A DNA stretch of 39,503 nucleotides from IMG/VR virus record IMGVR_UViG_2718218309_000001; one strand, 5' to 3'. The first letter of the stretch is position 1; each line of letters opens with the position of its first letter. The DNA comes from a virus (lineage: Duplodnaviria; Heunggongvirae; Uroviricota; Caudoviricetes). A program made the translations under genes and the position numbers. The notes beneath the pieces were generated by a model, which saw only the letters and a list, made by a program, of their open reading frames with translations, did no database searches and was not told the DNA's origin. Below are positions 2,275 through 38,993 of this stretch, piece by piece.

Positions 2275-3546
2275 TTAGGCTACCAGAGCATTTGATCTTT
2301 GAGCTTGAACGTAATCACTCCACCATTGCATCAAACTCTGTCGCTCTATCAGATATTCTGCACGATTGTATGCTGCGATAATTTCATCTTTTTTCGAGTG
2401 GGCAAGCGCTGCCTCAAGAACTTCAGCTCTGAATTTACCAGACTCCTCTGCCGCTGTTCGTGCAATAGAACGCATACCGTGAGCTACAAGCTCGCCTCCG
2501 AACCCCATTCGGATGATAGCTGCGTTGGCTGTTTGTTCATGCATATGATTAAGAGGCGCTTTTATGCTGGGGAAAACCCATTCTCTATGCCCACTTATTG
2601 ATTTCATTAATTCAAGGATGCGCAAAGCTTCTTTACTCAAAGGAACTTTGTGAAGCTTTTTCATTTTCATGAAATCAGCAGGAATGTTCCAAATGCTGTT
2701 GGTTGTATCAATATCAGACCACCTTGCGCGAACGGCTTCACCCGGACGAACCCATGTCAACAATTGCCATTCAATTAGCATACGTGTTTCCAACCGGATT
2801 GACGCATTCGTCAAAGATTCCATAAACCTTGGCAATTCGCTTGGGGGAAGGGCAGGCATATTTTGCTTTTTTGGTTTACTGAATCTTTGACCAAGGTTGT
2901 CAGCCGGGTTGAACTCAATAAGTTCTTCAGTAGCTGCCCACCGGAAGATTTCATTCAGACGTGAAATGATACGGCGTAGAGTTTCCAATACGCCTCGTTG
3001 CTCAATAGGATCAAGGTGTTGTTTTAAGAGCTTAGGTCGGATCTCATTGATAGGGACATTACCCAGACCGGGAAAGACATTTCTCTCTAAGCTGCGCCAG
3101 ATGTCTGCTGCATGGTCTTGTGAGATACCTGATGTCTTTACCTTCTCATCTAACCATTTCCGCGCTACGGCTTGGAGAGTGTGCTCAGTAGCACTCTTTA
3201 ATGCCTTCGCCTTATCGTTGTTATGGATTTGGGGATCAACACCATTTGCCAGAAAGGAGAGATATTCATCACGTAAGGCTCTGGCTCTTGCAAGGGTAAG
3301 GTGAGGATATGTCCCAAGGCTCATTTTGGTTCTTTTCTTGCTCACTGGTACTGCATACCTGAAATACCAATTTTTCTTGCCTCCTTTCGCCAAAGGAGCG
3401 ATTCGTAGAATCAGACCATCACCGTCAAACAAGTTGATTTCTTTATCGGCTGGCTTGGTGCTTTTGATTTCAGTGTCAGTGAGCTTCTTAGCGATTTTTG
3501 CCATTTTGGGACCCTCGGTTTTTGGACCCTTCTTAGTGGGTCCCAT
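2275..3546 (-). CDS. int: P4-family tyrosine integrase (CP4-57 IntA-like); true start probably the internal Met (MAKIAKKLTDTEIK, near 3504)
   Basis: N-terminal TDTEIKSTKP...DGDGL...WYFRY motif block typical of P4-type integrases; C-terminal catalytic region with R...H..R..Y-type residues (HGMRS, AHS...YNRAEY); adjacent to att copy. Confidence 0.9.
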   Translation of the reverse strand: MGPTKKGPKTEGPKMAKIAKKLTDTEIKSTKPADKEINLFDGDGLILRIAPLAKGGKKNWYFRYAVPVSKKRTKMSLGTYPHLTLARARALRDEYLSFLANGVDPQIHNNDKAKALKSATEHTLQAVARKWLDEKVKTSGISQDHAADIWRSLERNVFPGLGNVPINEIRPKLLKQHLDPIEQRGVLETLRRIISRLNEIFRWAATEELIEFNPADNLGQRFSKPKKQNMPALPPSELPRFMESLTNASIRLETRMLIEWQLLTWVRPGEAVRARWSDIDTTNSIWNIPADFMKMKKLHKVPLSKEALRILELMKSISGHREWVFPSIKAPLNHMHEQTANAAIIRMGFGGELVAHGMRSIARTAAEESGKFRAEVLEAALAHSKKDEIIAAYNRAEYLIERQSLMQWWSDYVQAQRSNALVA

Positions 3547-3669: not shown

Positions 3670-3714
3670 TGGTGGAGCTGGCGGGAGTTGAACCCGCGTC
3701 CGAAATTCCTACAT
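3670..3714. repeat. 45-bp direct repeat of the ssrA 3' end (att core copy; junction between prophage and P4-like island)
   Basis: tggtggagctggcgggagttgaacccgcgtccgaaattcctacat is identical to 39102-39146 (the 3' end of ssrA); sequences diverge immediately outside. Confidence 0.9.
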
Positions 3715-3827
3715 ACCATTTTTATCATAGTAAAAACAGTAATTTACGTTTAAAAACAATGTATTAGTATTATTTTGTATTTGTCCGTTTTACGCATTTT
3801 TAATGCTCTGTCGCCAAATTGCCGCCA

Positions 3828-5021
3828 TCACTTCTTGTCTTCGATAGAACCGTATTCAAGAAGGTTGTCCATACACTTCTCTAACCTATAGAAATCTGTC
3901 AAAGGATAGAGATTGACAATGTTGTCATCAAAACTTTGCATACCTGATAAACGTTCTTTCCTTCTTAAGAATCTTGAGGCAGACCTAACACCATCATCCT
4001 CACTTGGTTCACAGGAATAATCTAGAGTTTTTAGTACCTGCCATGAAACGGGGGGAGTAAGCTTGAACATTTTTACTAGCTTAGGACAGAAATCTTTTGT
4101 TATGGTTTGCTGATATGTAACTTTAGGTGGAAGAACAACGTTAATAGATTTATCACCATGGTTTGTTTTAATCATTCTTGTCGATCTGTATGCAATTCCG
4201 ACAATGTTTGATTTATTTCTACGACTAATCCATTGCATTAATAAATTTGGGATTATATATTCCTGAGTGAAAGATGTGCTGCCGTTAATCTTTGCAAAAC
4301 TACAAGCGTAAATTAGTGGCATTAAACAAATGTAAGACATCTTTGTGATGTATGACATTTTGTCATTATCAATCTTACCATAGAAACGTGAGTAGAGGAT
4401 TTCCGAAGTGAAATCTAATATTTTGGAATTTTCTTCACTGGATATAAAAGAAGATATATATAACTTATCAAAATCAGGTTTATCCATTTCAAGCCAACAT
4501 ACATATAGGGATGAGCCTAAATATAAACAGGGTAGACCTGCAACCGAGTATCTTTGGGCATTTACCAAGTGCCTTTTAGAGAATGGTATATGAAAGATTT
4601 CATTTCTATTTTTTACTGCTGTATCAGATTTTCTAACCCTGAATAAAGGTCTTGAAGAATTGCAAATATTCTCTAAGGGGATTGATATTTTCTGGATGTA
4701 GTTAGCTGTGAATCGATCAGAAAATGTTCTGTCGAAAGTATCATATGAGGACTTGATATCACCTGATAAAAAATATTCCAAAGAGCTTACAACGCCAAAG
4801 TATATTCTTGTTATTCTATCAAGTTTAGAACTCAATCTACGAGATAATTCATTGTCATTATCTTCTATGTAGTCATTTAAAGTATTAAAGTAAATTTCAC
4901 ATTTATTTTTAAAATCATTAATAATGTCGGTCTTAACAGTGAAAGGGAGTTTTAAATCTCCCGTCTTTATAAGGCTTTCAAATAAAAAATTAAAATCATC
5001 ATGTATATTTTCGGTTTCCAT
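3828..5021 (-). CDS. RES-domain-like protein (397 aa), candidate NAD+-targeting toxin/effector
   Basis: Motif block PLFRVR...QRYSVAGLPCLYLGSSLYVCWLE (aa about 125-179) matches the RES signature (Arg ... G.P.LYL.SS ... E) known from RES-Xre toxins; very AT-rich; second gene of an operon downstream of int. Confidence 0.55.
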   Translation of the reverse strand: METENIHDDFNFLFESLIKTGDLKLPFTVKTDIINDFKNKCEIYFNTLNDYIEDNDNELSRRLSSKLDRITRIYFGVVSSLEYFLSGDIKSSYDTFDRTFSDRFTANYIQKISIPLENICNSSRPLFRVRKSDTAVKNRNEIFHIPFSKRHLVNAQRYSVAGLPCLYLGSSLYVCWLEMDKPDFDKLYISSFISSEENSKILDFTSEILYSRFYGKIDNDKMSYITKMSYICLMPLIYACSFAKINGSTSFTQEYIIPNLLMQWISRRNKSNIVGIAYRSTRMIKTNHGDKSINVVLPPKVTYQQTITKDFCPKLVKMFKLTPPVSWQVLKTLDYSCEPSEDDGVRSASRFLRRKERLSGMQSFDDNIVNLYPLTDFYRLEKCMDNLLEYGSIEDKK

Positions 5022-5075
5022 TGTTATTATCCTTTTGAGTAATTTAATGAATATAACGGGTTTTTCGTGACAGCA

Positions 5076-6203
5076 TCATTCCAAATGATCTGCCGCCGCT
5101 TTGCCGCCAAGGATTTTCATATAAGGAGGCTTAGCATAAACCTCCTTGGTCTGCTGGAAAGTGGTTTTGGAGAATCTTCTTTCTTCTGATTGTAAATATT
5201 TTAGCAGACGTTGATATTTGTTTTCTAATATTTGACTATTCCCAGCCAGATCGTAAATATCGCAGGTTATGTTATAAAGCCAATAAACTACGGCTTTGAT
5301 TTCAGGCTCTGAGAAATAGGTTGTGTTAAATACATATTCATTATTATGATTGTAAATGTAGGAGTGTTTCCTTTGTATAGTGTTAACCTTAAGTAGCTTC
5401 ATAAGGTTGATAATTTTAAGGTCAATAGAAATTAAAGAAATTATCTCTGACTTCAAATCACCCTTTTTGATACCAATAATTTCTTTATCAAGTTCATTCC
5501 AGGCATTTATGATTTTTTGCGTGAATTTTGGGGAAGGGCTATAAATTGCACCAGTATTTTGTGAAGATTGAAATAAATTATTATAAAGCTTATGAGGAAA
5601 TACAATTTTCACTTCGTAAGTATTTACTTTTTCACTTGATTCTATATAAGCATGGCTAGCCACTTCAGCAGCCACATGCCTTGTTCGATCAGTCTGCGTG
5701 GGGATATATTCAAGAACCAAAGTAGGGAATGAACTAATCGTTTCGATAAATAGTTTTAAATGAGAGTAATAAGCGTCTGCATTGTTTTTAACTTTAGCTG
5801 ATTGTATCTGTGATTCAGTTTGAATGGTTCTATGAATATTATTTACTATTGAAGCCAGTGGCACTGATGAAGCTAATAATAGCAACGGAAGTTTACTAAT
5901 ATTAAGAAAATTTGCAAACCCGTCGGTTGTCAGTTGTAAACTATGATCTCTCCAAACCCAGCAACCGAATAAAATAAAATAGTAAAATGGTAATAAGATA
6001 GAAGCTATAAACAAAGGTTGTTTGAATAAATTATTGTCATTTAACTCAAACCACCCGTAAAAATAAAACAGTCCTATTGTTATAAATAATGAGGTTATTG
6101 CCACCGTTAAGAACATTACCTCAAAACCATAATATATTGTAAAAGTATTTGCAACTATGGATAGTAAGAGCAAAAAAGTTAAAGTGATAATTTTATTTTT
6201 CAT
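5076..6203 (-). CDS. Hypothetical membrane protein (375 aa): about 4 N-terminal TM helices plus about 280-aa soluble C-terminal domain
   Basis: Hydrophobic segments in the first 90 aa; start ATG (6203-6201) overlaps the int stop codon (TGA 6202-6200), i.e. ATGA translational coupling with int; AT-rich. Confidence 0.6.
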   Translation of the reverse strand: MKNKIITLTFLLLLSIVANTFTIYYGFEVMFLTVAITSLFITIGLFYFYGWFELNDNNLFKQPLFIASILLPFYYFILFGCWVWRDHSLQLTTDGFANFLNISKLPLLLLASSVPLASIVNNIHRTIQTESQIQSAKVKNNADAYYSHLKLFIETISSFPTLVLEYIPTQTDRTRHVAAEVASHAYIESSEKVNTYEVKIVFPHKLYNNLFQSSQNTGAIYSPSPKFTQKIINAWNELDKEIIGIKKGDLKSEIISLISIDLKIINLMKLLKVNTIQRKHSYIYNHNNEYVFNTTYFSEPEIKAVVYWLYNITCDIYDLAGNSQILENKYQRLLKYLQSEERRFSKTTFQQTKEVYAKPPYMKILGGKAAADHLE

Positions 6204-7219
6204 AAGTTAATCATATTCAACGGGTTTTTGGTAACTGCATCTTCTAAATGATCTGGGGAGAAATGTGCATAGATCATTGTCATCTTAATATCGGCATGCC
6301 CAAGAATTTCTTTAAGAACAAGTATATTACCGCCATTCATCATGAAATAGCTTGCGAAGGTATGCCGCAGCACGTGGGTACATTGGCCCTCTGGCAAGTC
6401 GATACCAGCTCGTTTCACTGCGCGCTCAAAAGCTTTTCTGCATGGCGTGAATAGTTTCCCTCTGTTTTTGGGGAGTTCATCATACAGCTCCTGAGATATC
6501 GGTATGGTACGGTTTTTCTTGCCTTTAGTTTTGGTATAGGTGATCCGGTATTTAGTTAACTGATGGCCTTGAAGGTTTTCTGCTTCACTCCATCGCGCGC
6601 CGGTAGCCAGGCATATTTTTGCAATCATCAATAGGCTGGAGCTATGAGAATCTGCGCAAGCATCAAGCAGGCGTTTAATTTCTTCCGTGGTCAGGAACGC
6701 CAGCTCACCTTCTGCGATTTTAAATGTTGGCAAACCGGCGAGTGGATTGGGTGCTGACCAATGGCCCAACTTTTTCAGTGTGCCAAACACGGATGATAGG
6801 TTGCGTTGTTCAAGGTTTACCGTGCGAGGCTTAACTGGCGACATAAGCACGCCATCTTCATTTCGCACCTCACCTTTTAGCCGTGCTTCGCGGTATTTCG
6901 TAAAGTCGCCAGCGGTTAACTCTGAGGCAACAGGATCACCCAGGCCGTTACAAATAATGTTGAGTTTTGCCATCAGGCGTTTGGGGTCAGCAAGTGTCTG
7001 CCCGTAGAGTGAATGCCATTGCTCAATCACTTCTGACAAACGCCGCCGATCTTCTTTCTCACCCAACCACGGTTTTTTGTTTACTTCGTCCATGGTGTGA
7101 TTTTCGAATGCTATGGCCTCACCTTTCGTCGCAAATTGTTTGCGCACACGCTTGCCGTCGCGCCCGTTAGGGTAGCACTCACATAACCATTTACCGTTCG
7201 GCTGTTTTCTGATGGTCAT
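6200..7219 (-). CDS. int: P2/186-type tyrosine integrase
   Basis: 339-aa protein with N-terminal MTIRKQPNGKWLCE... and C-terminal catalytic residues (R...HVLRHTFAS...YAHF), as in P2 Int; located next to the repressor gene as in P2/186. Confidence 0.9.
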   Translation of the reverse strand: MTIRKQPNGKWLCECYPNGRDGKRVRKQFATKGEAIAFENHTMDEVNKKPWLGEKEDRRRLSEVIEQWHSLYGQTLADPKRLMAKLNIICNGLGDPVASELTAGDFTKYREARLKGEVRNEDGVLMSPVKPRTVNLEQRNLSSVFGTLKKLGHWSAPNPLAGLPTFKIAEGELAFLTTEEIKRLLDACADSHSSSLLMIAKICLATGARWSEAENLQGHQLTKYRITYTKTKGKKNRTIPISQELYDELPKNRGKLFTPCRKAFERAVKRAGIDLPEGQCTHVLRHTFASYFMMNGGNILVLKEILGHADIKMTMIYAHFSPDHLEDAVTKNPLNMINL

Positions 7220-8767: not shown

Positions 8768-9064
8768 ATGCTGAAGAAAGAACCATCATTTGCATCGCTG
8801 CTGGTAAAACAAAGTCCGGCAATGCACTACGGTCACGGCTGGATCATGGGTGAGGATGGTAAACGCTGGCATCCATGTCATTCACAAGATGAATTGCTGT
8901 CTGAATTGACCACGAGGAAACGGAGAAAGTCAAAATGTATGCAGCGGAAAGTGAAGTGGTTTATCAGTTTCGTTACAGAGGGGAGAGTTATTCAGTACCT
9001 GAAGATGATTTGCTGTGTTGTTATCCGTCGTTGTCGGGCGATGGCAGTTACTTTTTCACGCTAA
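8768..9064 (+). CDS. Hypothetical early protein (3' extent doubtful; C-terminal half looks like low-complexity read-through)
   Basis: GAGGTG RBS before ATG 8768; overlaps the next ORF by about 130 nt in another frame. Confidence 0.3.
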   Translation: MLKKEPSFASLLVKQSPAMHYGHGWIMGEDGKRWHPCHSQDELLSELTTRKRRKSKCMQRKVKWFISFVTEGRVIQYLKMICCVVIRRCRAMAVTFSR

Positions 9065-9159
9065 AAGATGGGACGTTTTTACGGGGAGAGCAGGTTAAAG
9101 AGACGATACGAAAAAATGTATCTCCTCTTGAACGTTACCGTAATAACAAACAACGATAG
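8935..9159 (+). CDS. Hypothetical early protein (74 aa)
   Basis: ORF with GGAG-type RBS upstream; position corresponds to small early genes (fil/dhr/orf78 region) of 186/P2. Confidence 0.4.
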   Translation: MYAAESEVVYQFRYRGESYSVPEDDLLCCYPSLSGDGSYFFTLKDGTFLRGEQVKETIRKNVSPLERYRNNKQR

Positions 9160-10051: not shown

Positions 10052-10905
10052 GCACCATCCTGAAATGGGCGGGAAATAAAACCGCAATTATGTCCGAACT
10101 GAAAAAACACCTTCCTGCTGGCCCGCGACTGGTTGAACCTTTCGCGGGTTCCTGTGCTGTGATGATGGCGACGGATTATCCAAGCTATCTGGTTGCGGAT
10201 ATTAATCCTGATTTAATCAACCTCTATAAAAAGGTTGCCGCTGATTGTGAATCGTTTATATCTCGCGCCAGAGTTTTATTTAAGGAAGCAAACAGGGAGG
10301 TGGCTTATTACAACATAAGGCAGGAGTTTAATTACTCAACTGAAATTACTGATTTCATGAAAGCGGTATATTTCCTGTATCTCAATCGTCACGGTTACCG
10401 TGGTTTATGTCGCTATAACAAGAGCGGGCATTTCAACATTCCGTACGGTAATTATAAAAATCCGTATTTCCCTGAAAAAGAAATTCGCGCATTTGCAGAG
10501 AAAGCCCAGCGGGCAACGTTTATCTGCGCAAGCTTTGATGAAACGCTGGCGATGCTGCAGGTGGGGGATGTGGTGTATTGCGATCCGCCGTATGACGGTA
10601 CGTTTTCCGGCTATCACACTGATGGTTTCACTGAAGATGACCAGTATCACCTAGCATCCGTTCTTGAACATCGGTCATCAGAAGGACATCCGGTCATTGT
10701 TTCTAACAGTGACACATCCCTGATCCGTTCGCTATATCGCAATTTTACTCACCACTACATCAAGGCAAAACGCAGCATCGGTGTGGCAGCTGGTGAGAGT
10801 AAATCTGCAACAGAAATCATCGCTGTTTCCGGGCCGCGCTGCTGGGTGGGATTTGATCCTTCGCGTGGCGTGGATAGTTCTGCCGTGTACGGAGTGCGTG
10901 CATGA
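10048..10905 (+). CDS. dam: DNA adenine methyltransferase (Dam family, GATC-type)
   Basis: N-terminal SAM-binding block (KWAGNK...LVEPFAGS) and catalytic DPPY motif ([10 protein letters not shown]); ATG at 10048; stop overlaps the A start (ATGA). Confidence 0.9.
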
Positions 10906-13316
10906 GCCATGCTGATATGAACAACTGCAGCGGCTTTAACGAGGCCGCCGCAGCATTCTCATGGAACAGCCCGAAAAAGGCCATTAACCCTTATCTGGAC
11001 CCGGCGGAAGTTGCGCCGGTTTCTGCGCTTTCAAACCTGATCACTCTGTACGCTGCTGATAACGAGCAGGAACAGCTGCGCCGTGAGGCGCTGAGTGATC
11101 AGGTCTGGGAGCGTTATTTCTTTAATGAATCCCGTGATCCTGTCCAGCGCGAAATGGAACAGGATAAGCTCATTAGTCGGGCAAAGCTGGCGCATGAGCA
11201 GCAGCGTTTTAATCCGGATATGGTCATTCTGGCGGACGTCAACGCCCAGCCTTCCCATATCAGCAAGCCGCTGATGCAACGTATTGAATACTTCAGCAGC
11301 CTGGGCAGGCCAAAGGCTTATTCCCGCTATTTGCGTGAGACGATTAAGCCATGTCTGGAACGACTGGAGCATGTACGCGACAGTCAGCTATCCACTTCTT
11401 TTCGCTTTATGGCAAGCCATGAAGGGCTGGACAGTCTGCTGATCCTGCCTGAAATGAGTCAGGATCAGGTGAAACGCCTGTCCACCCTGGTAGCTGCGCA
11501 TATGAGCATGTGCCTTGATGCCGCTTGTGGCGATTTGTATGCCACCGATGACGTTAAGCCAGAAGAAATCCGCAAGACATGGGAAAAGGTGGCGGCGGAA
11601 ACCCTGCGACTGGATGTCATACCGCCTGCGTTTGAGCAACTCCGCCGGAAAAGAAACCGCCGTAAACCCGTGCCCTATGAACTCATTCCGGGGTCGCTGG
11701 CGCGTATGCTGTGCGCCGACTGGTGGTATCGGAAATTGTGGAAGATGCGTTGCGAATGGCGGGAAGAGCAGTTGCGTGCTGTTTGCCTGGTCAGCAAAAA
11801 AGCATCTCCCTATGTCAGCTATGAAGCCGTGATGCATAAACGTGAGCAGCGCCGTAAGTCGCTGGAGTTTTTCCGTTCTCATGAACTGGTGAACGAAGAC
11901 GGCGACACGCTGGACATGGAGGATGTGGTAAACGCCAGCAGCAGCAACCCTGCGCATCGCCGCAATGAGATGATGGCCTGTGTTAAAGGTCTGGAGCTTA
12001 TCGCGGAAATGCGCGGTGACTGCGCCGTTTTCTACACCATCACCTGTCCGTCACGTTTCCATTCCACGCTAAATAACGGCAGGCCCAACCCGACCTGGAC
12101 AAATGCGACGGTAAGACAAAGCAGTGATTATCTGGTCGGCATGTTTGCTGCATTTCGTAAGGCGATGCACAAAGCCGGATTGCGCTGGTATGGCGTGCGG
12201 GTGGCTGAGCCGCATCATGACGGTACAGTTCACTGGCATCTGTTGTGTTTTATGCGCAAAAAAGATCGCCGCACCATTACTGCTTTGTTGCGTAAGTTTG
12301 CCATTCGTGAAGACCGCGAGGAGCTGGGTAATAACACGGGACCACGCTTTAAGTCTGAGCTGATAAACCCGCGCAAAGGTACGCCAACAAGCTACATCGC
12401 GAAATACATCAGTAAGAACATTGACGGGCGTGGTCTGGCTGGCGAGATCAGCAAGGAAACGGGTAAATCCCTGCGTGATAACGCTGAATACGTTAATGCC
12501 TGGGCGTCTCTGCATCGTGTTCAGCAATTCCGCTTCTTTGGCATTCCGGGGCGTCAGGCTTACCGTGAACTGCGATTGCTGGCTGGTCAGGCGGCAAGGC
12601 AACAGGGGGACAAAAAAGCAGGTGCGCCGGTACTGGATAACCCGCGCCTTGATGCAATCCTGGCTGCTGCTGATGCTGGTTGTTTTGCCACCTACATCAT
12701 GAAGCAGGGCGGCGTACTGGTTCCCCGCAAATATCACCTCATCAGAACTGCTTATGAAATCAACGAAGAACCGACCGCATATGGCGATCACGGTATTCGT
12801 ATTTATGGCATCTGGTCACCCATTGCAGAGGGCAAGATCTGCACTCATGCGGTGAAGTGGAAAATGGTTCGTAAGGCCGTTGACGTTCAGGAGGCGGCAG
12901 CCGACCAGGGCGCTTGCGCCCCTTGGACTCGTGGCAATAACTGTCCCCTTGCTGAAAATTTGAACCAACAGGAGAAAGATAAATCAGCAGATGGGGATAC
13001 CAGAACTGATATTACCTGCATGGATGACAAGGAATTGCACGATTACCTGCACAATATGAGCAAAAAAGAGCGCCGGGAACTGGCAGCAAGATTACGCCTG
13101 GTTAAACCGAAACGGCGTAAAGACTACAAACAGCGAATTACAGAGCATCAGCGTCAGCAGCTCGTCTATGAACTGAAGTCCAGAGGATTTGATGGCAGCG
13201 AGAAAGAGGTCGATTTGCTCCTTCGCGGTGGCAGTATTCCGTCAGGAGCAGGCCTGCGTATCTTCTATCGGAACCAGCGTTTGCAGGAAGATGATAAGTG
13301 GCGGAACCTGTATTAA
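10902..13316 (+). CDS. A: Replication initiation protein A (rolling-circle nickase, P2 gpA / 186 RepA)
   Basis: 804-aa protein with the HxH...Y(I)AKYISK active-site region (TVHWHLLCF ... [11 protein letters not shown]) characteristic of P2 gpA. Confidence 0.9.
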
Positions 13317-13408: not shown

Positions 13409-13428
13409 TACTGTAAATATAAACAGTG
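13409..13428. promoter_or_regulatory. LexA box (SOS operator) TACTGTAAATATAAACAGTG
   Basis: Matches CTGT-N8-ACAG with AT-rich spacer; lies about 45 bp upstream of ORF 13470 and the DinI-like gene. Confidence 0.55.
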
Positions 13429-13469
13429 TTTATGCATACAGTGTTGCTTGTGGTGTCATAGGAGGAAAG

Positions 13470-13658
13470 ATGCAGGACTATTTTTTGGAGTCTTTGAAGC
13501 TCCAGCGCATTGATTTTTTTCTTAAGCTTGTAGCGGCTAGTGAGTGTAGTGATGAAGAGAAGGGGCTGGCTCTGCAGTGGGTTTCTGAATTGACTGATGA
13601 ACTCATGGCAAAAATCAGAAGCCACGAATACAACCGCTCAATGGATGTCATCAGCTGA
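13470..13658 (+). CDS. Hypothetical small protein (62 aa), first gene of putative SOS-controlled operon
   Basis: GGAGGA RBS 4-9 nt upstream of ATG 13470; preceded by LexA box. Confidence 0.5.
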   Translation: MQDYFLESLKLQRIDFFLKLVAASECSDEEKGLALQWVSELTDELMAKIRSHEYNRSMDVIS

Positions 13659-13668
13659 GGTGACTTTT

Positions 13669-13902
13669 ATGCGCATTGAAATAATGATCGATAAAGAGCA
13701 GAAGATTAGCCAGTCTACCCTGGACGCTCTGGAGTCCGAGCTTTACCGCAACCTGCAACCCATCTATCCCAAGACAGCTATCCGCATCCGTAAAGGGTCG
13801 GCAAACGGCGTTGAGCTGAGTGGCTTAAAGCTTGATGAAGACAAAAAGCGGGTGATGGAAATTATGCAGCAGGTTTGGGAAGACGACAGCTGGCTGCACT
13901 AA
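13669..13902 (+). CDS. dinI: DinI-family protein (77 aa)
   Basis: MRIEIMIDKEQ...LDALESEL...IMQQVWEDDSWL follows the DinI pattern (MRIEV...ETWE..DW); GAGGTG RBS. Confidence 0.8.
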   Translation: MRIEIMIDKEQKISQSTLDALESELYRNLQPIYPKTAIRIRKGSANGVELSGLKLDEDKKRVMEIMQQVWEDDSWLH

Positions 13903-13975
13903 GGAACGTTCCTGATGTAAGAACTTGATTCTGACGTCAGCAAGGTTGAACAACGAGAGTAGCGAGGCGTTAGCC

Positions 13976-14236
13976 ATGGGTAAAAAAGACAGTAATCACC
14001 AGATTATTTATCGGGGCCAGGTGCTGGAACGGTTTACCCCTGGCGGCTGGGTCTTCTTTCAACGCCCAAAGGAGTGTGGCGGAGGTTTTTGGTTGGGCCG
14101 CACCTATGAAGACTGCTTCTGGCTTGAGCTGGAATTCCCCGTTTCGCTATATGACGGCCTGGAGTTTTTGATGGAAGTCACCAGGGTAGAGCAGAGAAGT
14201 GATGAGGTTGACGCGAATTATTCCCTGTTTGATTAA
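13976..14236 (+). CDS. Hypothetical protein (86 aa), possible Tum-like or other accessory protein
   Basis: ORF following the DinI-like gene; assignment is positional only. Confidence 0.45.
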   Translation: MGKKDSNHQIIYRGQVLERFTPGGWVFFQRPKECGGGFWLGRTYEDCFWLELEFPVSLYDGLEFLMEVTRVEQRSDEVDANYSLFD

Positions 14237-14284
14237 AAATGTATTAGCTTATAATGGAATACTATTTTTGCAGGTGGGGGCGCA

Positions 14285-14896
14285 ATGGATTTAGTCTTTA
14301 AAATTCTGGCTTCGTTGGGTGGGGTGTCTTTTGTTGCATCTGGCATATTTGTTTGGATCGGGAAAGTTTATTTAGAAAGATATAAGTCGCGGCTAAACAA
14401 AGATATTGCTGAATTTCAATCACAACTGAGTGCAACTAATGAAAGAATAAAGGCTAAGTTAGACAATTCTGTTTATGTAACGAAAGCGTATTTTGATAAG
14501 GAGTTATCAGCATATAGTCTCATTTGGAATTCGATGTTTGAAACCAGAGAAAGCGTGCTTAAGCTGAGGCCTGCGCTGGATCATTTTGACCCCAACGAAC
14601 CATTTGAAGAGAGAAAATTTAGAAGGTTGAAAGTTTTTTTCGATGCATTTAATACTTTTGTTACAAGTGTTGAGTCTAACAAACCGTTCATCTCACCAGA
14701 GGTTTATATAATCTTGGACCGTTTCCGGAAGGAATGCTTTTCAGAGTCAATATCGTTTCAGCATGGCGATCCAGAATTTGACTGGCAAAATTATTGGAAA
14801 GAGGCAGAGTTGAATCGTACAACCATCACCAAGCTTTTTGATGAGACGTGTGATGCAATTCGAGACAGGATGCACACATTAACTGTGGTTACGTAG
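14285..14896 (+). CDS. Hypothetical membrane-anchored protein (203 aa; N-terminal TM helix plus helical cytoplasmic domain); hotspot cargo at the tin/old position
   Basis: N-terminal hydrophobic segment ILASLGGVSFVASGIFVWIG; AT-rich; lies between gene A and cos where P2 carries the anti-phage genes tin and old. Confidence 0.6.
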   Translation: MDLVFKILASLGGVSFVASGIFVWIGKVYLERYKSRLNKDIAEFQSQLSATNERIKAKLDNSVYVTKAYFDKELSAYSLIWNSMFETRESVLKLRPALDHFDPNEPFEERKFRRLKVFFDAFNTFVTSVESNKPFISPEVYIILDRFRKECFSESISFQHGDPEFDWQNYWKEAELNRTTITKLFDETCDAIRDRMHTLTVVT

Positions 14897-14987
14897 TTTT
14901 CCAAAAAGTCTCGATGCCCGCTTTGGCGATTGTGCATGTCTATGCCGCATGAATCCGCATGATCGTTTGAGGATCGTTTTAGCTGAG

Positions 14988-15011
14988 GCCCGCTAGGAAT
15001 GGCGGGCTTTT
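14988..15011 (+). terminator. Rho-independent terminator (GCCCGC-loop-GCGGGC followed by TTTT)
   Basis: Perfect 6-bp GC stem with 8-nt loop and T tract downstream of ORF 14285-14896. Confidence 0.45.
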
Positions 15012-15056
15012 GCTTATGTCATGCAGACGCATGAAAACCACTACATAAAGCGGGCA

Positions 15057-15075
15057 GGCGTGGCGGGGATACGAG
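15057..15075. other. cos site (cohesive-end sequence) of the P2/186-type prophage
   Basis: GGCGTGGCGGGGATACGAG closely matches the 19-nt cohesive ends of 186 (GGCGTGGCGGGGAAAGCAT) and P2 (GGCGAGGCGGGGAAAGCAC), recalled from memory. Confidence 0.55.
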
Positions 15076-15185
15076 CGCGCGCTCATGGTTGAATTAATGA
15101 AATTATGGTGTTAAATAGGCTAGCTTTTTAAGTCGTGAATATTCAATTTTTCAACTCATTTTTTTCATAGGGAGGAGTAATTGAC

Positions 15186-15884
15186 ATGGTTATGTTAGTG
15201 GATGACTGTCCACGATGTGGATCACAAAAAATAGCGTTTGATGTTAATGGGCTGAATTGCACTAGGGTTTACAATGCATTGGGCGGGGGTAAAACATACG
15301 AGTACGAGGTCTATTGTGTTTGCCGAGAGTGTCATAAAACGACAATGTTTCTTTGCAGACCTTTAACGAAAAATAAAACTTTAGATGGCTATAATTGGGA
15401 AAGTGGAATATTCGGCTTAAAGGAAGTTGCAGAGGTTGTTAGGCCTATATCACCGGCAGACTTAGCAGTAGAGGAGCCACCAGAGTTCTTACCTGAGCAT
15501 ATCAATAGTACATATGAGGAAGGGGCGAAATGTTTGGCTATAGGTTGTTATAATGCAGCAGCAACCATGTTTAGGCTTTGCCTTGATTATGCCACAAAAG
15601 GACTTCTTCCTGATGGGGAGCAAGGGCCTGCGCAAAAAATAAGGAGAAGCCTAGGGTTAAGAATGGAGTGGTTATTTGATAATCATCTACTGCCTGAAGC
15701 TTTAAGGGAACTAGCTGAATGCGTTAAAGATGACGGAAATGATGGAGCGCATGAAGGTATTTTGGATAAAGCTGCTGCTGAGGATCTTGAAGATTTTACC
15801 TATCTTTTTTTAGAACGGCTTTACACTGAACCTCAACGCCTTATCGAAGCCAAGACAAGGCGTGAACAAAGAAGAAACAAATAA
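15186..15884 (+). CDS. Hypothetical Zn-ribbon protein (232 aa): N-terminal CPRCG...CRECH plus C-terminal helical domain; cargo between cos and Q
   Basis: Cx2C-N30-Cx2C at the N-terminus; GGAGGAG RBS; AT-rich; stop is only 8 bp from the Q stop. Confidence 0.65.
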   Translation: MVMLVDDCPRCGSQKIAFDVNGLNCTRVYNALGGGKTYEYEVYCVCRECHKTTMFLCRPLTKNKTLDGYNWESGIFGLKEVAEVVRPISPADLAVEEPPEFLPEHINSTYEEGAKCLAIGCYNAAATMFRLCLDYATKGLLPDGEQGPAQKIRRSLGLRMEWLFDNHLLPEALRELAECVKDDGNDGAHEGILDKAAAEDLEDFTYLFLERLYTEPQRLIEAKTRREQRRNK

Positions 15885-15892
15885 GTTCGGAA

Positions 15893-16930
15893 TTATTCTT
15901 CTGAAAGAATATAGGGCGTAAATTTAATCACTTCTTCGCCCAGCCAGTCGTTCAGCTCTTGTAGCCTTTTTTGCAAGGGCGTTAATTCATTACGTACAAA
16001 TACGCGACTGGCCTTCTCCACATCCCCAAACCCCCCGACATTATTAGGCATTATCCCCATCATTTGTGGCGGCACACGATGCGCCGCCATCATGTCGTCC
16101 CGGCTCACGTTCTTGATATTCAGGAACTCATCCTTCGCCGCCACTTCTGACAACGGGATAATCTGAAGCCCGTCCTTTTTACCGTTAGGCGAGTACATAA
16201 ACAGGTTACGGAAGTTACCAGGACCTTTGGCGCTTTTCATCGCATTGCGGAGGTTGTTCACATCCTCCTGGTTCTGTGCTGCATCGGTCATGTACATGAT
16301 GAAGCCTGCATGACTGCCGTTAATGTAATACTTGCGGCGGAACAGCGTGGCGGACTCGTTGAGCAGAGCTGACGGAATGGCAGAAAGATAACCAGGCAGG
16401 CCGTAGATCTCCTGGTTGATGTCCGGTTCCATCAGATGAAAAATGTTGCCTTTCGTGAACTGATACGGCTGCGTAGTCATGCCGTATTGCACAAACCAGT
16501 AGGTATCAAGGTCTAACCCGCGTCGGGTGTATTTTGCCAGTGCAGGCTCAAGGGCGATAACTTCACCGAAGCGGTTCGTGCGTTTCTCCAGGTAGGCGTT
16601 ACCAAAAACCAGATAGTCCTGTACAAAACGCGAAAAAGCCTGCTGGCTGAGCAGCGGGTGAGGGATGTAGGTGCTGGTCAGAATGTTGCACTTCACTGCA
16701 ATCGGTGAGCTGTGATGCACGGCGGCGCGGAAGGTTCGCGCCAGTCCGTCGAAACTCACAGGCGGCTCGTACCAACGATCCATCTGTACGCATTCCACAT
16801 AGTCCAGCAGTTCGCGGCGGTCCAGAACAGGAACGGGATCACCGAAGCTGAATGCTTCGGCTGAAGTCTGGCTTTTATGCTGGATCTGTTTCGTCGACGC
16901 AGCGCGGTTCTTCTTACTCTTTCCCATCAA
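15893..16930 (-). CDS. Q: Portal protein (P2 gpQ)
   Basis: 345-aa protein, size and position (leftward, next to cos, before P) match P2 Q. Confidence 0.95.
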   Translation of the reverse strand: MMGKSKKNRAASTKQIQHKSQTSAEAFSFGDPVPVLDRRELLDYVECVQMDRWYEPPVSFDGLARTFRAAVHHSSPIAVKCNILTSTYIPHPLLSQQAFSRFVQDYLVFGNAYLEKRTNRFGEVIALEPALAKYTRRGLDLDTYWFVQYGMTTQPYQFTKGNIFHLMEPDINQEIYGLPGYLSAIPSALLNESATLFRRKYYINGSHAGFIMYMTDAAQNQEDVNNLRNAMKSAKGPGNFRNLFMYSPNGKKDGLQIIPLSEVAAKDEFLNIKNVSRDDMMAAHRVPPQMMGIMPNNVGGFGDVEKASRVFVRNELTPLQKRLQELNDWLGEEVIKFTPYILSEE

Positions 16931-18693
16931 AAAATCTCCACAATATTGCTGGTATTGGCGGACTCGCCCTGCAGCGGTTCGTTAAACAGTGCGTGCATTG
17001 TTGCCCAGGCCAGATCGGCATGGCTGGCTTCTTCGCTGCGGCTGGCTTCATAGGTCGGGCGGTTGCCACTGGCAGTGGTAGCGCGACGGATTGCCATAAA
17101 TGACTGCGCAATGTCGGTGTGCCCGGCGTCAAACTCCAGACGGCGGTGGCTGATAATGTCGTAGGCCTTGAGTACCAGGGCGTTTTTAACGTTGGGGTTA
17201 TAGACAAACTCCCTGACGGCAGGAAAAAACGCTTTCACGTTCTCGTAAACCCCGTGACCGACGCCGGTCGAGTCGATACCGATATAGGTCACGTTATACT
17301 GTTCGGTCAGTTTTTTGATGGCGTCAGCCTGGGCGCGGAAGTCCATCCCGCGCCACTGGTGACGCTCAAGAATGCGGAACTTACCACCCGGCACGGCTGG
17401 CGGAGCCACCACCACGCATCCGGCACTGTCGCCGTTCTGCGTACCTTTTGCCGGGTCATAACCGATCCACACTTCGCGCCAGCCAAACGGGCGCAGGGCC
17501 AGTGCATGAAAGTCGGTCCAGACTTCCCAGCTGTCCACCATGCACGCCTGCAGTTCGCTGAGCGGGAACACGGACGCGAGATCGTCCACGAACTCGCACA
17601 TCAGCAGGTTCTGGTATTCGTCCGGGCTGTACTCCATGCGCAGCTGGTCGAGGTCGAACAGGTTACAGCCGCCGCGCACCGCATCTTCCACGGTGACTAT
17701 CTGGCGGTATTGCCCGTCTGCGCACAGTAGGCCGGGGGCCAGATTGCTGTGGGACAGGTCGATGTCCACCTTGTCAGCTTTGTTGCGTCCACGGTTGAAC
17801 AGCGCACCGGACCAGAACGGATAAGCACTGTGGGTCAGGCTGGATGGCGTGGAAAAATAGGTTTGTCGCCATTTCTTGTGAATAGCCATACCGGAAGCCA
17901 CTTTGCGCAACTCCTGGAATTTCGGTATCCAGAAATATTCATCCAGATACAGGTTGCCGTGGTAACTCTGCGCCGTGCGGGCATTGGTGCCGAGGAAGTA
18001 AAGCGTGGCCCCGTTAGGAAGCACCATCGGATCGCCTTTCAGCTCCACCTCGACTTCTTTGGCGAAGTCGATGATGTACTGCTTGAAGACGTGGGCCTGT
18101 GCCTTACTGGCAGAAAGGAAAATCTGGTTACGTCCGGTAAGCAGAGCGTCAATCAGGGCTTCACGGGCAAAGTAAAAGGTCGCGCCGATCTGGCGTGACT
18201 TCAGCAGGTTGCGGATGCGGTTGGTTTTTCCGGCTTCCCACCAGTGGCGCTGGTAGTTGAACATGGAGGAATGGAAGATTTCTTCCAGTTTCTCTATCTG
18301 TTCATCGGTGAAAACATTCTTTTCCGGCTGACGGCGCGGGCCTTTGTTGCGGTTGGCGACGTTAGGGTTTAAGTCGGCTTCGTTGCCGCCATTGTTAAAC
18401 TTGCCGATCCGCGCGTGGCGCTCCGACTGGCGCGCCAGCAGGTCAATTTCTTTGAAATCTTTCCCTTCTTTGTGCTCCTTCATAATGAGCTGGCAGTAAC
18501 GTGCGGCGGTGGTGAGCTGCATCTGATCCAGCGGCCCATAGTCACCCCACTTGTCGCGTTTCTTCCAGCTGTGAACGGTTGCAACTTTCTCGCCCAGCAT
18601 TTCAGCAATGCGGGCTACGCGGTATCCCTGAAAGTACAGCAGCATGGCCTGCCGACGGGGATCGAGATCTGCGGGTGTCAGTGTGGTGTTCAT
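16927..18693 (-). CDS. P: Terminase large (ATPase) subunit (P2 gpP)
   Basis: 588-aa protein in the P2 P position, overlapping Q by 4 nt; Walker-type ATPase region (SRQIGATFYFAREA). Confidence 0.95.
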   Translation of the reverse strand: MNTTLTPADLDPRRQAMLLYFQGYRVARIAEMLGEKVATVHSWKKRDKWGDYGPLDQMQLTTAARYCQLIMKEHKEGKDFKEIDLLARQSERHARIGKFNNGGNEADLNPNVANRNKGPRRQPEKNVFTDEQIEKLEEIFHSSMFNYQRHWWEAGKTNRIRNLLKSRQIGATFYFAREALIDALLTGRNQIFLSASKAQAHVFKQYIIDFAKEVEVELKGDPMVLPNGATLYFLGTNARTAQSYHGNLYLDEYFWIPKFQELRKVASGMAIHKKWRQTYFSTPSSLTHSAYPFWSGALFNRGRNKADKVDIDLSHSNLAPGLLCADGQYRQIVTVEDAVRGGCNLFDLDQLRMEYSPDEYQNLLMCEFVDDLASVFPLSELQACMVDSWEVWTDFHALALRPFGWREVWIGYDPAKGTQNGDSAGCVVVAPPAVPGGKFRILERHQWRGMDFRAQADAIKKLTEQYNVTYIGIDSTGVGHGVYENVKAFFPAVREFVYNPNVKNALVLKAYDIISHRRLEFDAGHTDIAQSFMAIRRATTASGNRPTYEASRSEEASHADLAWATMHALFNEPLQGESANTSNIVEIF

Positions 18694-18835: not shown

Positions 18836-19669
18836 ATGACAGTGAAAGCAAAGCGTTTTCGCATCGGGGTGGAAGGTGCCACCACCGACGGACGCGAAAT
18901 CCAGCGTGAATGGCTGGAACAGATGGCAGCCAGCTACAACCCGGCGGTGTATACCGCGCTGATTAACCTTGAGCACATCAAGTCTTATCTCCCGGACAGC
19001 ACCTTTAACCGTTACGGCAAGGTGACGGCGCTGTTTGCTGAAGAAATCACGGAAGGCCCGCTGGCAGGCAAGATGGCGCTGTATGCCGACGTTGAGCCAA
19101 CGGAGTCCCTGGTGGAATTGGTGAAAAAAGGCCAGAAATTATTCACCTCTATGGAAGTCAGCCCGAAGTTCGCTGATACGGGCAAAGCCTACCTGGTCGG
19201 CCTGGCTGCCACTGATGACCCTGCCAGTTTGGGTACGGAAATGCTGACATTCAGCGCCAGTGCAGCCCATAACCCGCTGGCAAACCGCAAGCAGAATCCC
19301 GCCAATCTCTTTACCGCCGCAGAGGAAACGGTGATCGAACTGGAAGAAATCCAGGAGGACAAACCGTCCCTGTTTGCCCGTGTCACGGCGCTGTTTACCA
19401 AAAAAGAGCAGTCCGACGATGCCCGGTTCTCTGATGTGCATAAGGCCGTGGAGCTGGTCGCCACTGAGCAGCAAAACCTGAGCGCACGCACCGAAAAATC
19501 CCTGTCTGAGCAGGAAGAACGTCTGTTTGAGCTGGAGACTGCCCTGCAGGCACAGCAGACCGCCTTTAACGAACTGGTGAATAAGCTGAGTCATGAAGAC
19601 AGCCGCCAGGACTACCGCCAGCGTGCAACAGGCGGTAACGCCCCCGCTGACACTCTGACCAATTGCTGA
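18836..19669 (+). CDS. O: Capsid scaffolding protein (P2 gpO)
   Basis: 277-aa acidic coiled-coil-rich protein immediately before the major capsid gene. Confidence 0.9.
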   Translation: MTVKAKRFRIGVEGATTDGREIQREWLEQMAASYNPAVYTALINLEHIKSYLPDSTFNRYGKVTALFAEEITEGPLAGKMALYADVEPTESLVELVKKGQKLFTSMEVSPKFADTGKAYLVGLAATDDPASLGTEMLTFSASAAHNPLANRKQNPANLFTAAEETVIELEEIQEDKPSLFARVTALFTKKEQSDDARFSDVHKAVELVATEQQNLSARTEKSLSEQEERLFELETALQAQQTAFNELVNKLSHEDSRQDYRQRATGGNAPADTLTNC

Positions 19670-20747: not shown

Positions 20748-21398
20748 ATGAGCCTGAGTCCCGCACGGCAGCATCGCCTGCGCGTTCAGGCTGAACAGGC
20801 CGCTCGCGAGGGTGGCAGTGTTCGCCACGCGTCGGGCTATGACCTGATGCTGCTGCAACTGGCGGAAGACCGCCGCCGTCTCAAGGGCGTTCAGTCCACG
20901 GTCAAAAAAGCGGAAATCAAGGTGGAGCTGCTGCCGAAATATGCCGCCTGGGCGGAGGGCGTTCTGGCTGCCGGAGGCGCTCAACAGGATGACGTGCTGA
21001 TGTACGTGATGCTGTGGCGCATTGATGCCGGAGATTATGCAGGGGCGCTGGAGATCGGGCGTCATGCCCTGCGTCATGGCTGGGTGATGCCGCTGGGTAA
21101 CCGCAACGTGCAGACCGTGCTGGCAGAGGAAATGGCAGACGCGGCGCAGAGCGCAATGCTTGCCGCCACCGGCTTTGATGCCGATCTGTTGCTGCAGACG
21201 CTGGAGCTGACAGACGGTCTGGATATGCCGGACCAGTCACGGGCGCGTCTGCATAAAGCGATTGGCGCTGTCCTGAGTGAAAGCAACCCGGCTTCCGCCC
21301 TTAATCATCTCAACCATGCGTTACAGCTCGATCCTCGCTGTGGCGTGAAAAAAGACAAACAGCAGCTGGAGCGCAGACTGCGCAATGACAGCCGCTGA
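20748..21398 (+). CDS. M: Terminase small (endonuclease) subunit (P2 gpM)
   Basis: 216-aa protein following N, as in P2. Confidence 0.85.
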   Translation: MSLSPARQHRLRVQAEQAAREGGSVRHASGYDLMLLQLAEDRRRLKGVQSTVKKAEIKVELLPKYAAWAEGVLAAGGAQQDDVLMYVMLWRIDAGDYAGALEIGRHALRHGWVMPLGNRNVQTVLAEEMADAAQSAMLAATGFDADLLLQTLELTDGLDMPDQSRARLHKAIGAVLSESNPASALNHLNHALQLDPRCGVKKDKQQLERRLRNDSR

Positions 21399-38077: not shown

Positions 38078-38251
38078 ATGGATACAAACGAACTTGGCTT
38101 AGTTAAGGCGCGTGTTGAACTGATCACCGCTATGCTCAAATGCGCAACCGCGTTTGTTGGCTTAGTTGGTGCGGTTTACGCCGTTCTTAACATGGCCTTC
38201 AACTACAACAATTTAACTCATGACAATAGAAGTTCAAAGGTGGGAAGATAA
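38078..38251 (+). CDS. Small single-TM protein (57 aa from ATG 38078; 62 aa from ATG 38063)
   Basis: Strong RBS GGAGGA (38065-38070) 7 nt before ATG 38078; hydrophobic helix CATAFVGLVGAVYAVLNMAF; 3' end overlaps the RT start by about 30 nt. Confidence 0.45.
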   Translation: MDTNELGLVKARVELITAMLKCATAFVGLVGAVYAVLNMAFNYNNLTHDNRSSKVGR

Positions 38252-38993
38252 ATTTGAGATTAAGCCCGGGGTTTGGGTTTATGTCCCAAGCGTTGAGGCA
38301 CGTAAAGTCGGAGGGAAGATACTTCAGGCTGTCAGAAACAAGTGGATTCCGCCACTCTATTTTTACCATCTAAGAACTGGTGGGCATCTTAAAGCTGCCA
38401 GATTACACTTAAAAAGTGATTTTTTTGCCGTTGTTGATATTAAACAATTTTTTCAGTCAACGAGCCGTAGTCGTATCACCCGTGATCTAAAGAGCTACTT
38501 CACCTATTCTCAAGCGCGGGAAATCTCAACATTTTCAACTGTAAGAAACTTGTCCCATAGTCCACATAAGCATGTCCTCCCTTTTGGTTTTGTTCAATCT
38601 CCAATACTTGCAACCCTCTGCTTAGATAAAAGTTATTTTGGTAGCTTACTACGCCGATTGAACAAACATCATGATCTCAAGCTAAGTGTGTTTATGGATG
38701 ATGTGATCATCTCGTCAAACGATTTGGCCCAATTACAAGCGGCTTACGACGAAGCACTAGTGGCAATGCGTAAATCTGGTTATCAAGCCAACATGAGTAA
38801 AACTCAGGCACCATCGTCAAAGATTAGCGTGTTTAATTTAACTTTGAGTAAGGGAGTTATGAAAGTCACATCTCAGAAAATGAGTGACTTCCTGATTGAT
38901 TTCTATTCAAGCAATTATGAGCCGCACAGAATAGGGGTCAAAAACTACGTCGAAGCTGTTAATCCAGGGCAAGCGAAACTCTTTAAGTTGTAA
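38220..38993 (+). CDS. Compact reverse transcriptase (257 aa; fingers/palm only), defence-associated RT candidate
   Basis: RT motifs in order: motif 2 FFAVVDIKQFF (catalytic Asp), motif 4 LPFGFVQSPILATL, motif 5 VFMDDVII (FMDD at 38691-38702), motif 6 YQANMSKT; no obvious thumb, maturase or retron VTG region; AT-rich; between ogr and attR. Confidence 0.8.
   Translation: MTIEVQRWEDKFEIKPGVWVYVPSVEARKVGGKILQAVRNKWIPPLYFYHLRTGGHLKAARLHLKSDFFAVVDIKQFFQSTSRSRITRDLKSYFTYSQAREISTFSTVRNLSHSPHKHVLPFGFVQSPILATLCLDKSYFGSLLRRLNKHHDLKLSVFMDDVIISSNDLAQLQAAYDEALVAMRKSGYQANMSKTQAPSSKISVFNLTLSKGVMKVTSQKMSDFLIDFYSSNYEPHRIGVKNYVEAVNPGQAKLFKL

Follow-up and report, generated by a model that had tools for sequence, protein, structure and literature searches.

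Comparative evidence for a P2-family cos site between two cargo slots in a Cartapus-like prophage

Phages P2 and 186, as well as the satellite P4, possess 19-nt 5'-protruding cohesive ends embedded in a conserved core of ~55 bp. In P2 and 186 this cohesive-end site (cos) is positioned between an accessory region on the side of gpA and a portal gene (gpQ) that converges on it, with the portal stop ~170 bp from the cohesive end and no gene between the two. The region between gpA and gpQ has been described as a hotspot of variable, partly defensive genes next to cos (PMC9122126; also PMC13586616), and Rousset et al. speculated in 2022 that cohesive ends promote the exchange of such genes (PMC9122126). 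Here, we examine the same locus in a prophage carried on a 39,503-nt stretch of DNA (IMG/VR record IMGVR_UViG_2718218309_000001), the whole of which is referred to below as the window. A sequence-only reading of the window had noted a 19-nt cos-like sequence between two cargo genes of this hotspot, and had proposed that these genes occupy opposite ends of the packaged genome and that cargo was acquired on both sides of cos.

A near-identical named phage is Escherichia phage Cartapus (OV696611.1), which corresponds to prophage 4 of E. coli LF82, belongs to the genus Elveevirus, is collinear with the window prophage and is reported to yield virion DNA from LF82 (PMC9928086). The two share ~97% identity over most of their length, with some modules differing, and possess an identical 19-mer with the same two flanking genes; across window positions 14825-15324 a single base differs, at 15027. 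In the Cartapus record, which was opened at the equivalent of window position 15025, the initial 59 bp are annotated as 'putative cos site, homologous to the cos of P2 phage'. Salmonella phage SEN8, which is related to Fels-2 and was sequenced from virions, has been assigned exactly this 19-mer as its putative cos (PMC5427200), and its record (NC_047753) starts with the 19-mer and ends at the base just before it. SEN8 resembles the window in carrying cargo on both sides of cos, but this cargo is its own. The interval from cos to the portal gene holds two genes, encoding a 333-aa hypothetical protein and an HNH endonuclease, and the interval on the DinI side holds one, encoding a DNA-binding protein. 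Given that the same sequence is annotated in Cartapus and SEN8, and that the hotspot has been published as lying next to cos (PMC9122126, PMC13586616), both the cos site and its cos-proximal hotspot are already known. In the texts that were read, four points seem to be unstated, namely the bipartite organization of the hotspot, its near-disjoint gene pools, a portal-side slot limited to one lineage, and the placing of the linkage seam at the cohesive end; all four represent incremental, testable advances.

The cos site and its flanking cargo slots

Read directly from the letters of the window, the 19-mer GGCGTGGCGGGGATACGAG occupies positions 15057-15075 of the plus strand and lies within the 289-bp gap separating two plus-strand open reading frames (ORFs), 14285-14896 and 15186-15884, which confirms its location between two hotspot cargo genes. 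A scan with a degenerate P2-family cos pattern, GGCGWGGCGGGGAWASSA, returned this site as its single match in 39.5 kb, with 0 mismatches, and the match was still single when up to 3 mismatches were allowed, a level at which shuffled sequence yielded a mean of 0.27 matches. Context, including the alignment and flanking motifs described below, provides a stronger argument against chance than this count. Among cos-anchored loci with enough flanking DNA, a portal gene was found in 51/51 and gpA in 46/47, in the order gpA...cos...portal, and the synteny of the portal gene is shared with P2, 186, Cartapus and SEN8. Furthermore, the exact 19-mer was recovered from 104 of 111 related cos regions, and from at least 120 IMG/VR contigs. 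A chance match was rejected as the origin of the 19-mer on the basis of this context and conservation.

Circular junctions of P2 and 186 were rebuilt and aligned to the window. The 19-mer aligns column for column with the cosL annotated in the P2 record (GGCGAGGCGGGGAAAGCAC) and the cos annotated in the 186 record (GGCGTGGCGGGGAAAGCAT), has the same 13-nt 5' part, GGCGnGGCGGGGA, and is identical to the 186 site at 15 of 19 positions, including the first 13. Flanking motifs (AAAACC...AAGnGGGC to the left and nGCGCGC to the right) occur at the same spacing in the window, P2 and 186 with zero indels, indicating that the 19-nt spacing between the predicted nick sites is preserved. The 186 record describes its site as having the 'top strand cut at 5' end and bottom strand cut at 3' end'; by analogy, the top strand of the window would be nicked at 15056/15057 and the bottom strand at 15075/15076, giving a staggered break with 5' overhangs. 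The window thus combines the features of a P2-family cos, comprising a match to the 19-mer, a core with fixed-spacing flanks, a location between gpA and the portal gene, and cognate terminase genes, of which the gpP homologue is the predicted enzyme cutting cos and the gpM homologue its predicted recognition subunit. Given this homology to the annotated cohesive ends of P2 and 186, which extends to sequence, spacing and position, there is little doubt that the site represents a genuine P2-like prophage cos, as the sequence-only reading had suggested. Att-like matches at ~3.7 kb and ~39.1 kb further indicate that the prophage is complete within the window. We therefore consider it very probable that the 19-mer represents the cos of a complete Cartapus-like (Fels-2/Elveevirus-type) prophage of the P2 family, set in a conserved island with two independent cargo slots.

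The organization of these slots was delineated from a sample of 160 loci anchored on the portal protein (80 IMG/VR contigs and 80 one-genome-per-species GTDB contigs, representing the best 80 matches of each search), 110 of which possessed a single cos core downstream of the portal gene. Relative to the window, identity is ~0.8-1.0 within positions 14932-15082 and drops to ~0.25-0.35, the level of random sequence, at 14931 and 15083; phage BLAST matches stop at the same edges. Both flanks of the resulting 151-bp island are variable in relatives, and ORFs occupy both sides of cos in 74 of 104 loci, which bears out the proposal of cargo on both sides. By this comparison, one slot extends over ~13980-14931 on the gpA/DinI side, and the other over 15083-15892 on the portal side.

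Between the portal stop and cos, the gap measures at least 500 bp in 104 of the 110 portal-anchored loci (median 1.65 kb) and ~150-160 bp, as in P2 and 186, in the other 6; an independent sample anchored on the 19-mer yielded gaps of at least 500 bp in 47 of 51 loci. The portal-side slot is empty in 4/104 loci and the gpA-side slot in 27/104. When the latter is empty (~27 loci), the DinI stop lies ~204 bp from cos, a distance made up of the 125-bp left arm of the island and a further ~79 bp. Correspondingly, conservation runs ~79 bp past the DinI stop in the window and decays at ~13960-13980. This outer edge implies that the gpA-side slot of the window holds two genes (13976-14236 and 14285-14896), so that the earlier description of one gene on either side of cos applies to the portal side (15186-15884) but not to the gpA side.

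The two slots also differ in the genes that they hold. Clustering of cargo ORFs (our own calls, at least 70 aa) at a minimum of 35% identity generated 143 clusters across the 110 loci, with 77 on the portal side, 67 on the gpA side, and only 1 found on both sides. Unlike the window, in which a gene lies between the portal stop and cos, the close relatives of P2 itself possess a portal-to-cos gap of ~169 bp and an empty portal-side slot in 77/79 cases, suggesting that use of this slot is a trait of the Fels-2/Cartapus lineage. Among E. coli genomes the DinI region and cos block are shared (~1290), with variable sequence on either side. The full two-gene arrangement of the window was found in 24 of 5426 E. 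coli genomes, and each of the two genes was also found without the other (H42, H74), for example the 203-aa gene without the DUF4145 gene in E. coli XH988 (H42). Gene content between gpA and gpQ is therefore variable among related phages, as in the published hotspot. The latter represents the same locus but was reported as one hotspot with the side of cos unstated, whereas the present comparison resolves two slots with nearly disjoint pools and lineage-dependent use of the portal side. Insertion of a mobile cos into a single cargo block was also considered and rejected, given that the island is constant in orientation, shows linkage to DinI, and never lies closer than ~79 bp to the stop of that gene.

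Differences in gene orientation and family were also observed. Almost all portal-side ORFs (163/165, loci L007-L166) read from cos towards the portal gene, and are thus convergent with it, while ORFs of the gpA-side slot are mixed in orientation (79 vs 59); the portal-side bias might be explained by transcription that continues from the plus-strand operon past cos, or by a need to avoid read-through from the late operon. The commonest portal-side families among relatives look defence-like, comprising DUF4145, AIPR, HIRAN with a HipA-like kinase, and DUF4062 proteins. The commonest gpA-side families comprise small proteins with signal-peptide- or lipoprotein-like N-termini that yielded no Pfam match. 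The slots may accordingly hold functionally different cargo.

Linkage and exchange at the cohesive end

Among the loci surveyed, 52 portal-side and 44 gpA-side arrangements occur in 91 combinations, with an adjusted Rand index (ARI) of 0.03 and an adjusted mutual information (AMI) of 0.085, indicating that the contents of the two slots assort independently. Linkage between each slot and its surroundings was examined through the divergence of aligned segments between pairs of loci, grouped by the cargo that they share. Pairs sharing gpA-side cargo only (n=68) diverge by 2.4% in DinI and 1.2% in the cos left arm, compared with background values of 12.9% and 11.3% among pairs sharing neither cargo (n=3189), and by 14.9% in the portal gene (background 16.0%). 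Conversely, pairs sharing portal-side cargo only (n=56) diverge by 14.1% in DinI, 12.2% in the cos left arm, and 11.3% in the portal gene. Shuffling of labels reproduced the left-arm effect in 0 of 500 trials. In this comparison, gpA-side cargo is shown to travel with DinI and the cos left arm, and portal-side cargo with the end of the portal gene. Even the segment 15018-15056, which abuts the predicted top-strand nick, exhibits a mismatch of 1.3% between pairs sharing gpA-side cargo vs 9.4% between those sharing portal-side cargo (background 9.0%), while from 15083 on the sequence follows portal-side cargo. These findings place a break in linkage within 15057-15082, corresponding to the cohesive end and the following 7 bp.

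Homology to P2 and 186 suggests how the site would operate. After excision and replication, a terminase composed of gpM and gpP would recognise the ~151-bp signal at 14932-15082 on circular phage DNA and introduce the two nicks 19 nt apart predicted above, generating a virion chromosome with 5'-protruding GGCGTGGCGGGGATACGAG ends that would re-anneal after injection. Under the P2 convention, the left end of the virion DNA would lie 110 bp from the start of the DUF4145 gene, and a stretch of 160 bp would separate the end of the 203-aa gene from the first base of the right-hand 19-mer; comparison with P2 thereby supports the earlier placement of the two flanking genes at opposite virion ends. 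The cos of phage lambda (cosQ-cosN-cosB) is a hotspot of double-strand-break recombination, at which the cut end serves as an entry point for recombination enzymes. Like the lambda site, that of the window is predicted to be a staggered terminase nicking site with recognition sequences placed asymmetrically around it, but the two share no sequence homology, and lambda differs in its 12-nt overhang and its packaging from concatemers, where P2 is reported to package from circles. In the window phage, the long conserved arm would form the right end of the mature genome.

Exchange of cargo might then proceed through intermolecular annealing of cos ends, or through break-initiated recombination at a cut cos, together with a second crossover in the conserved backbone. 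The chance that cut cohesive ends drive cargo exchange appears to us to fall just short of even. A fuller reading, which we put forward tentatively and hold to be quite possible, is that the gpA-gpQ hotspot represents two independent virion end-modules that are re-paired via the cohesive end by cos cutting and joining between co-resident phages, the left-end slot being an innovation of the Fels-2/Cartapus lineage. The right-end module would consist of DinI, cargo and the cos left arm, and the left-end module of cargo and the tail of the portal gene. A seam at the cohesive end fits, but does not prove, the idea of cos-end recombination put forward by Rousset et al. (PMC9122126).

Two-sided cargo might also have accumulated through ordinary homologous or illegitimate recombination at a permissive, non-essential site, with cos cleavage playing no causal part and the cos core merely being shared by all lineages, an explanation that we regard as a serious contender even if somewhat less than evenly poised. 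Each slot is bracketed by conserved candidates for crossover (DinI or gpA, the cos core, and the portal gene), and other hotspots of P2, Z/fun and int-att, are located away from cos (PMC13586616). The empty portal-side slot of 77/79 P2 relatives, which possess the same kind of cos, indicates that cos alone is insufficient to fill the slot, and hence that exchange at cos ends is not the whole story. However, ordinary recombination does not readily account for a linkage switch confined to the 26 bp of 15057-15082, with even 15018-15056 tracking gpA-side cargo. An identity patch of 26 bp is at the lower limit for RecA-type exchange, which we counted against this explanation. P4-like satellites, moreover, also possess a hotspot next to cos (PMC9122126).

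Anatomy and function of the conserved island

Closer examination of the island revealed two features in its left arm, in addition to the cos core. Copies of the motif GCATG correspond to the best-conserved columns of the arm; the motif is depleted across the window (68 found on both strands vs 144 +/- 14 expected from shuffles), yet five copies are packed into a 100-bp stretch of the island, and P2 and 186 possess TGCAT repeats at corresponding positions. We propose this cluster as candidate recognition repeats for the terminase small subunit. The second feature, a hairpin followed by a T-run, has a predicted folding energy of -22.9 kcal/mol (z = -4.26, with 0/200 shuffles equally stable). Across 85 distinct islands, the outermost stem pair is maintained in 72% and the others in 80-96%, and the loop varies between GAAC, GGAA and GTTC. 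Compensatory changes in the stem are few, and accordingly no covariation support is claimed. A consensus terminator scan missed this hairpin and flagged only a weak minus-strand site at 15053-15038; nevertheless, the hairpin probably acts as an intrinsic terminator of plus-strand transcripts that enter the island from the gpA/DinI side. Relative to P2 and 186, the lineage of the window possesses an extra conserved left arm of 86 bp that includes the hairpin, a segment absent from P2 in the alignment.

The extent of the packaging signal can accordingly be read in a second way. Distant P2-like phages of Yersinia, Erwinia, Escherichia and Ralstonia match the window at 15018-15082 only, a segment equivalent to the 55-bp core that P2 and P4 have in common (PMC3931495, PMC9594776). 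The signal might therefore be confined to this core of ~55-65 bp, with 14932-15017 kept for transcription as a terminator or insulator of an SOS/early plus-strand operon, a division of roles that strikes us as possible though less likely than not. Consistent with it, distant P2-like phages and the unrelated element L202 (described below) share just the core or the core and hairpin, the published core of P2 and P4 is itself 55 bp long, the hairpin is highly stable with a T-run after it, and P2 aligns without the hairpin segment. In favour of a longer signal, the TGCAT/GCATG repeats recur at equivalent P2 and 186 positions despite sequence divergence and form the best-conserved columns of an arm in a window otherwise depleted of GCATG, and improved transduction of P2/P4 cosmids has been ascribed to longer cos flanks (PMC9594776).

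That the 19-mer is instead a cos-like relic, in a prophage that is defective or packages from termini elsewhere, is highly improbable. In its favour, the literature yields no direct end mapping for this cos variant, the 3' third of the 19-mer is unlike P2 and 186, and the virion yield of Cartapus is very low with no plaques or particles seen (PMC9928086). Against it, no other non-coding stretch of the region is as well conserved as the site, which persists between randomised flanks in more than 100 diverse loci from many genera, a pattern pointing to purifying selection on its function. Moreover, the 19-mer is the sole match in the window, the prophage is complete and collinear with Cartapus, its P2-type TerL, TerS and portal genes are intact, and DNase-protected Cartapus DNA was detected above background (PMC9928086).

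Several points nonetheless weigh against our preferred reading of a genuine cos flanked by two independent cargo slots. A literature search for direct end mapping of GGCGTGGCGGGGATACGAG found none, returning only the SEN8 annotation; the cos annotations of SEN8 and Cartapus are both 'putative' and based on homology, and the one PhageTerm confirmation found, in phage HQ103, concerns the cos of P2 itself. Over its last 6 nt, the overhang is unlike those of P2 and 186 (ATACGAG vs AAAGCAT and AAAGCAC), such that the exact bottom-strand nick is placed only via the conserved spacing to GCGCGC. Inducibility of the window prophage is a property for which there is no sequence evidence, and the lineage-specific 86-bp arm at 14932-15017 could be regulatory, as a terminator. 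As for linkage, the pairs of loci compared are not phylogenetically independent, and they derive from the best 80 matches per search and from our own ORF calls; a seam at cos would also be expected if the invariant 26 bp served as a homology patch for ordinary recombination.

Gene map, expression and related elements

Features of the locus, together with the structural and terminase genes that follow it, are summarized below.

Table 1. Features of the cos locus and neighbouring genes of the window prophage
Feature	Coordinates	Strand	Basis and remarks
gpA replication endonuclease; outer marker of the published gpA-gpQ hotspot	10902..13316	+	Pfam Phage_GPA 8.5e-128
DinI/Tum-like gene; last conserved gene before the gpA-side slot	13597..13902	+	Pfam DinI 3.8e-24
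gpA-side cargo gene 1, hypothetical, CARTA_46 homologue	13976..14236	+	Inside variable slot; cluster cl4, 6 loci
gpA-side cargo gene 2, LF82_789/CARTA_47	14285..14896	+	203 aa; N-terminal hydrophobic segment; phrog_26391
cos island, 151 bp	14932..15082		Per-column identity; 125-bp left arm + 19-mer + 7 bp (CGCGCGC)
GCATG cluster, five copies (candidate recognition repeats)	14934..15033		14934, 14947, 14957 and 15029 on +; 15020 on -
GC-rich hairpin then T-run (probable terminator)	14985..15010	+	RNA fold
cos core, ~65 bp	15018..15082		Common even to distant P2-like phages
19-nt cohesive-end sequence (lambda cosN counterpart; predicted)	15057..15075	+	Alignment with P2 cosL and 186 cos; (nearly) invariant across 106 distinct related sequences
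Portal-side cargo gene, LF82_788/CARTA_1	15186..15884	+	232 aa; Pfam DUF4145 4.6e-07; phrog_1305 9.4e-53; cluster of 6 loci
Portal gene, gpQ homologue, converging on cos; right edge of the portal-side slot	15893..16930	-	Pfam Phage_portal 9.7e-19
Terminase large subunit, gpP homologue	16927..18693	-	Pfam Terminase_6N, Terminase_6C, Terminase_5; 63% identity to P2 gpP, full length
gpO scaffold	18836..19669		
Terminase small subunit, gpM homologue	20748..21398	+	Pfam Phage_term_smal 2.2e-40; 49% identity to P2 gpM

The 203-aa protein, which belongs to a cluster of 3 loci, matched no Pfam, NCBIfam or PADLOC family, and the DUF4145 protein shows a weak match (1.1e-06, 26 bits) to PD-T7-4 of PADLOC; the portal-side slot of relatives carries AIPR, HIRAN with HipA-like, and DUF4062 proteins. 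Expression typical of morons is apparent from published data for the near-identical Cartapus in LF82, rather than for the strain of the window itself: normalised RNA sequencing (RNA-seq) counts are 45.8 for CARTA_47 and 25.6 for CARTA_1, against 7.7 for the portal gene and 5.7 for TerL, and CARTA_47 is listed as a moron at 7x the prophage background (PMC9928086). In macrophage samples of the LF82 RNA-seq, CARTA_44, 45, 46, 47 and CARTA_1 are all up, and gpA, portal and TerL are not. Just upstream of the plus-strand run leading from ORF 13470 through DinI, the gpA-side cargo and cos to the DUF4145 gene, we also identified a perfect LexA box, CTGTAAATATAAACAG (window 13411-13441), which is the sole zero-mismatch CTGTN8ACAG of the window, abutted by a second box with one mismatch. 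This arrangement resembles the p95/LexA/tum operon of 186. Taken together, expression and operon structure suggest SOS-driven transcription, possibly running across cos in the prophage.

Other candidate cargo was noted away from cos. Near the right prophage edge, after the ogr region, a plus-strand ORF at 38220-38993 (257 aa; RVT_1 2e-21) occupies the place of a 'putative exonuclease' moron of Cartapus, and, as a possible defence gene of retron or DRT type, may mark a third position for cargo. Also identified were two minus-strand ORFs of 397 and 375 aa without Pfam domains (3828-6203), located between an att-like site (~3670-3832) and the P2-type integrase (6200-7219), where Cartapus encodes a RES-domain protein; their position agrees with that of the minor 'integrase-att' hotspot (PMC13586616). 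Just outside the prophage, at 2275-3546 on the minus strand, lies a second integrase, which has an Arm-DNA-binding domain and may be part of another integrated element.

A small number of unusual contigs bearing the cos sequence were also recovered. Matches confined to the cos block in E. coli (H76-H79) were considered as P4-like satellites and rejected as such, corresponding instead to another, degraded P2-like prophage. In a degraded P2-like prophage of E. coli WCHEC035148 (L169), the start of a RefSeq P-loop NTPase coding sequence, at 9017, falls inside the cos block (9001-9154), and this start codon has probably been called too far upstream. L202 (IMGVR_UViG_2700989567_000009; 13.5 kb) carries the exact 19-mer at 1475-1493 on the minus strand but no gpA, shares only window 14987-15082, and ends 1.5 kb past cos. 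It encodes an integrase, RecE/RecT, a DnaC/IstB-like protein, ParB-HTH and YdaT, with a DndB-like ORF adjoining cos, and could be either a mosaic phage combining a different early region with a P2-type cos or a satellite using this cos. Lastly, a 16-kb contig (L243; IMGVR_UViG_3300011853_000021) contains two inverted copies of a portal-cargo-cos-DinI segment, with cos at 3447-3465 (minus strand) and 6704-6722 (plus strand). Both copies match the window exactly over 14932-15082, and the contig is either a misassembly or a pair of back-to-back prophages.

For the annotation of phages of this type, cos matters in that it fixes the ends of the virion genome, and here it would place two accessory genes expressed in the lysogen at the extremes of the packaged DNA. 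The comparative results provide population-level support, at a resolution of 26 bp, for the published idea that cohesive ends act as points at which defence and moron cargo is reshuffled, and the mechanism of exchange is thereby made testable by simple crosses. They also suggest that the P2 hotspot is better analysed as two slots with different gene pools and lineage usage. Such a two-slot view could sharpen searches for defence genes, given that the portal-side slot is rich in AIPR, DUF4062, DUF4145 and HIRAN/HipA-like genes.

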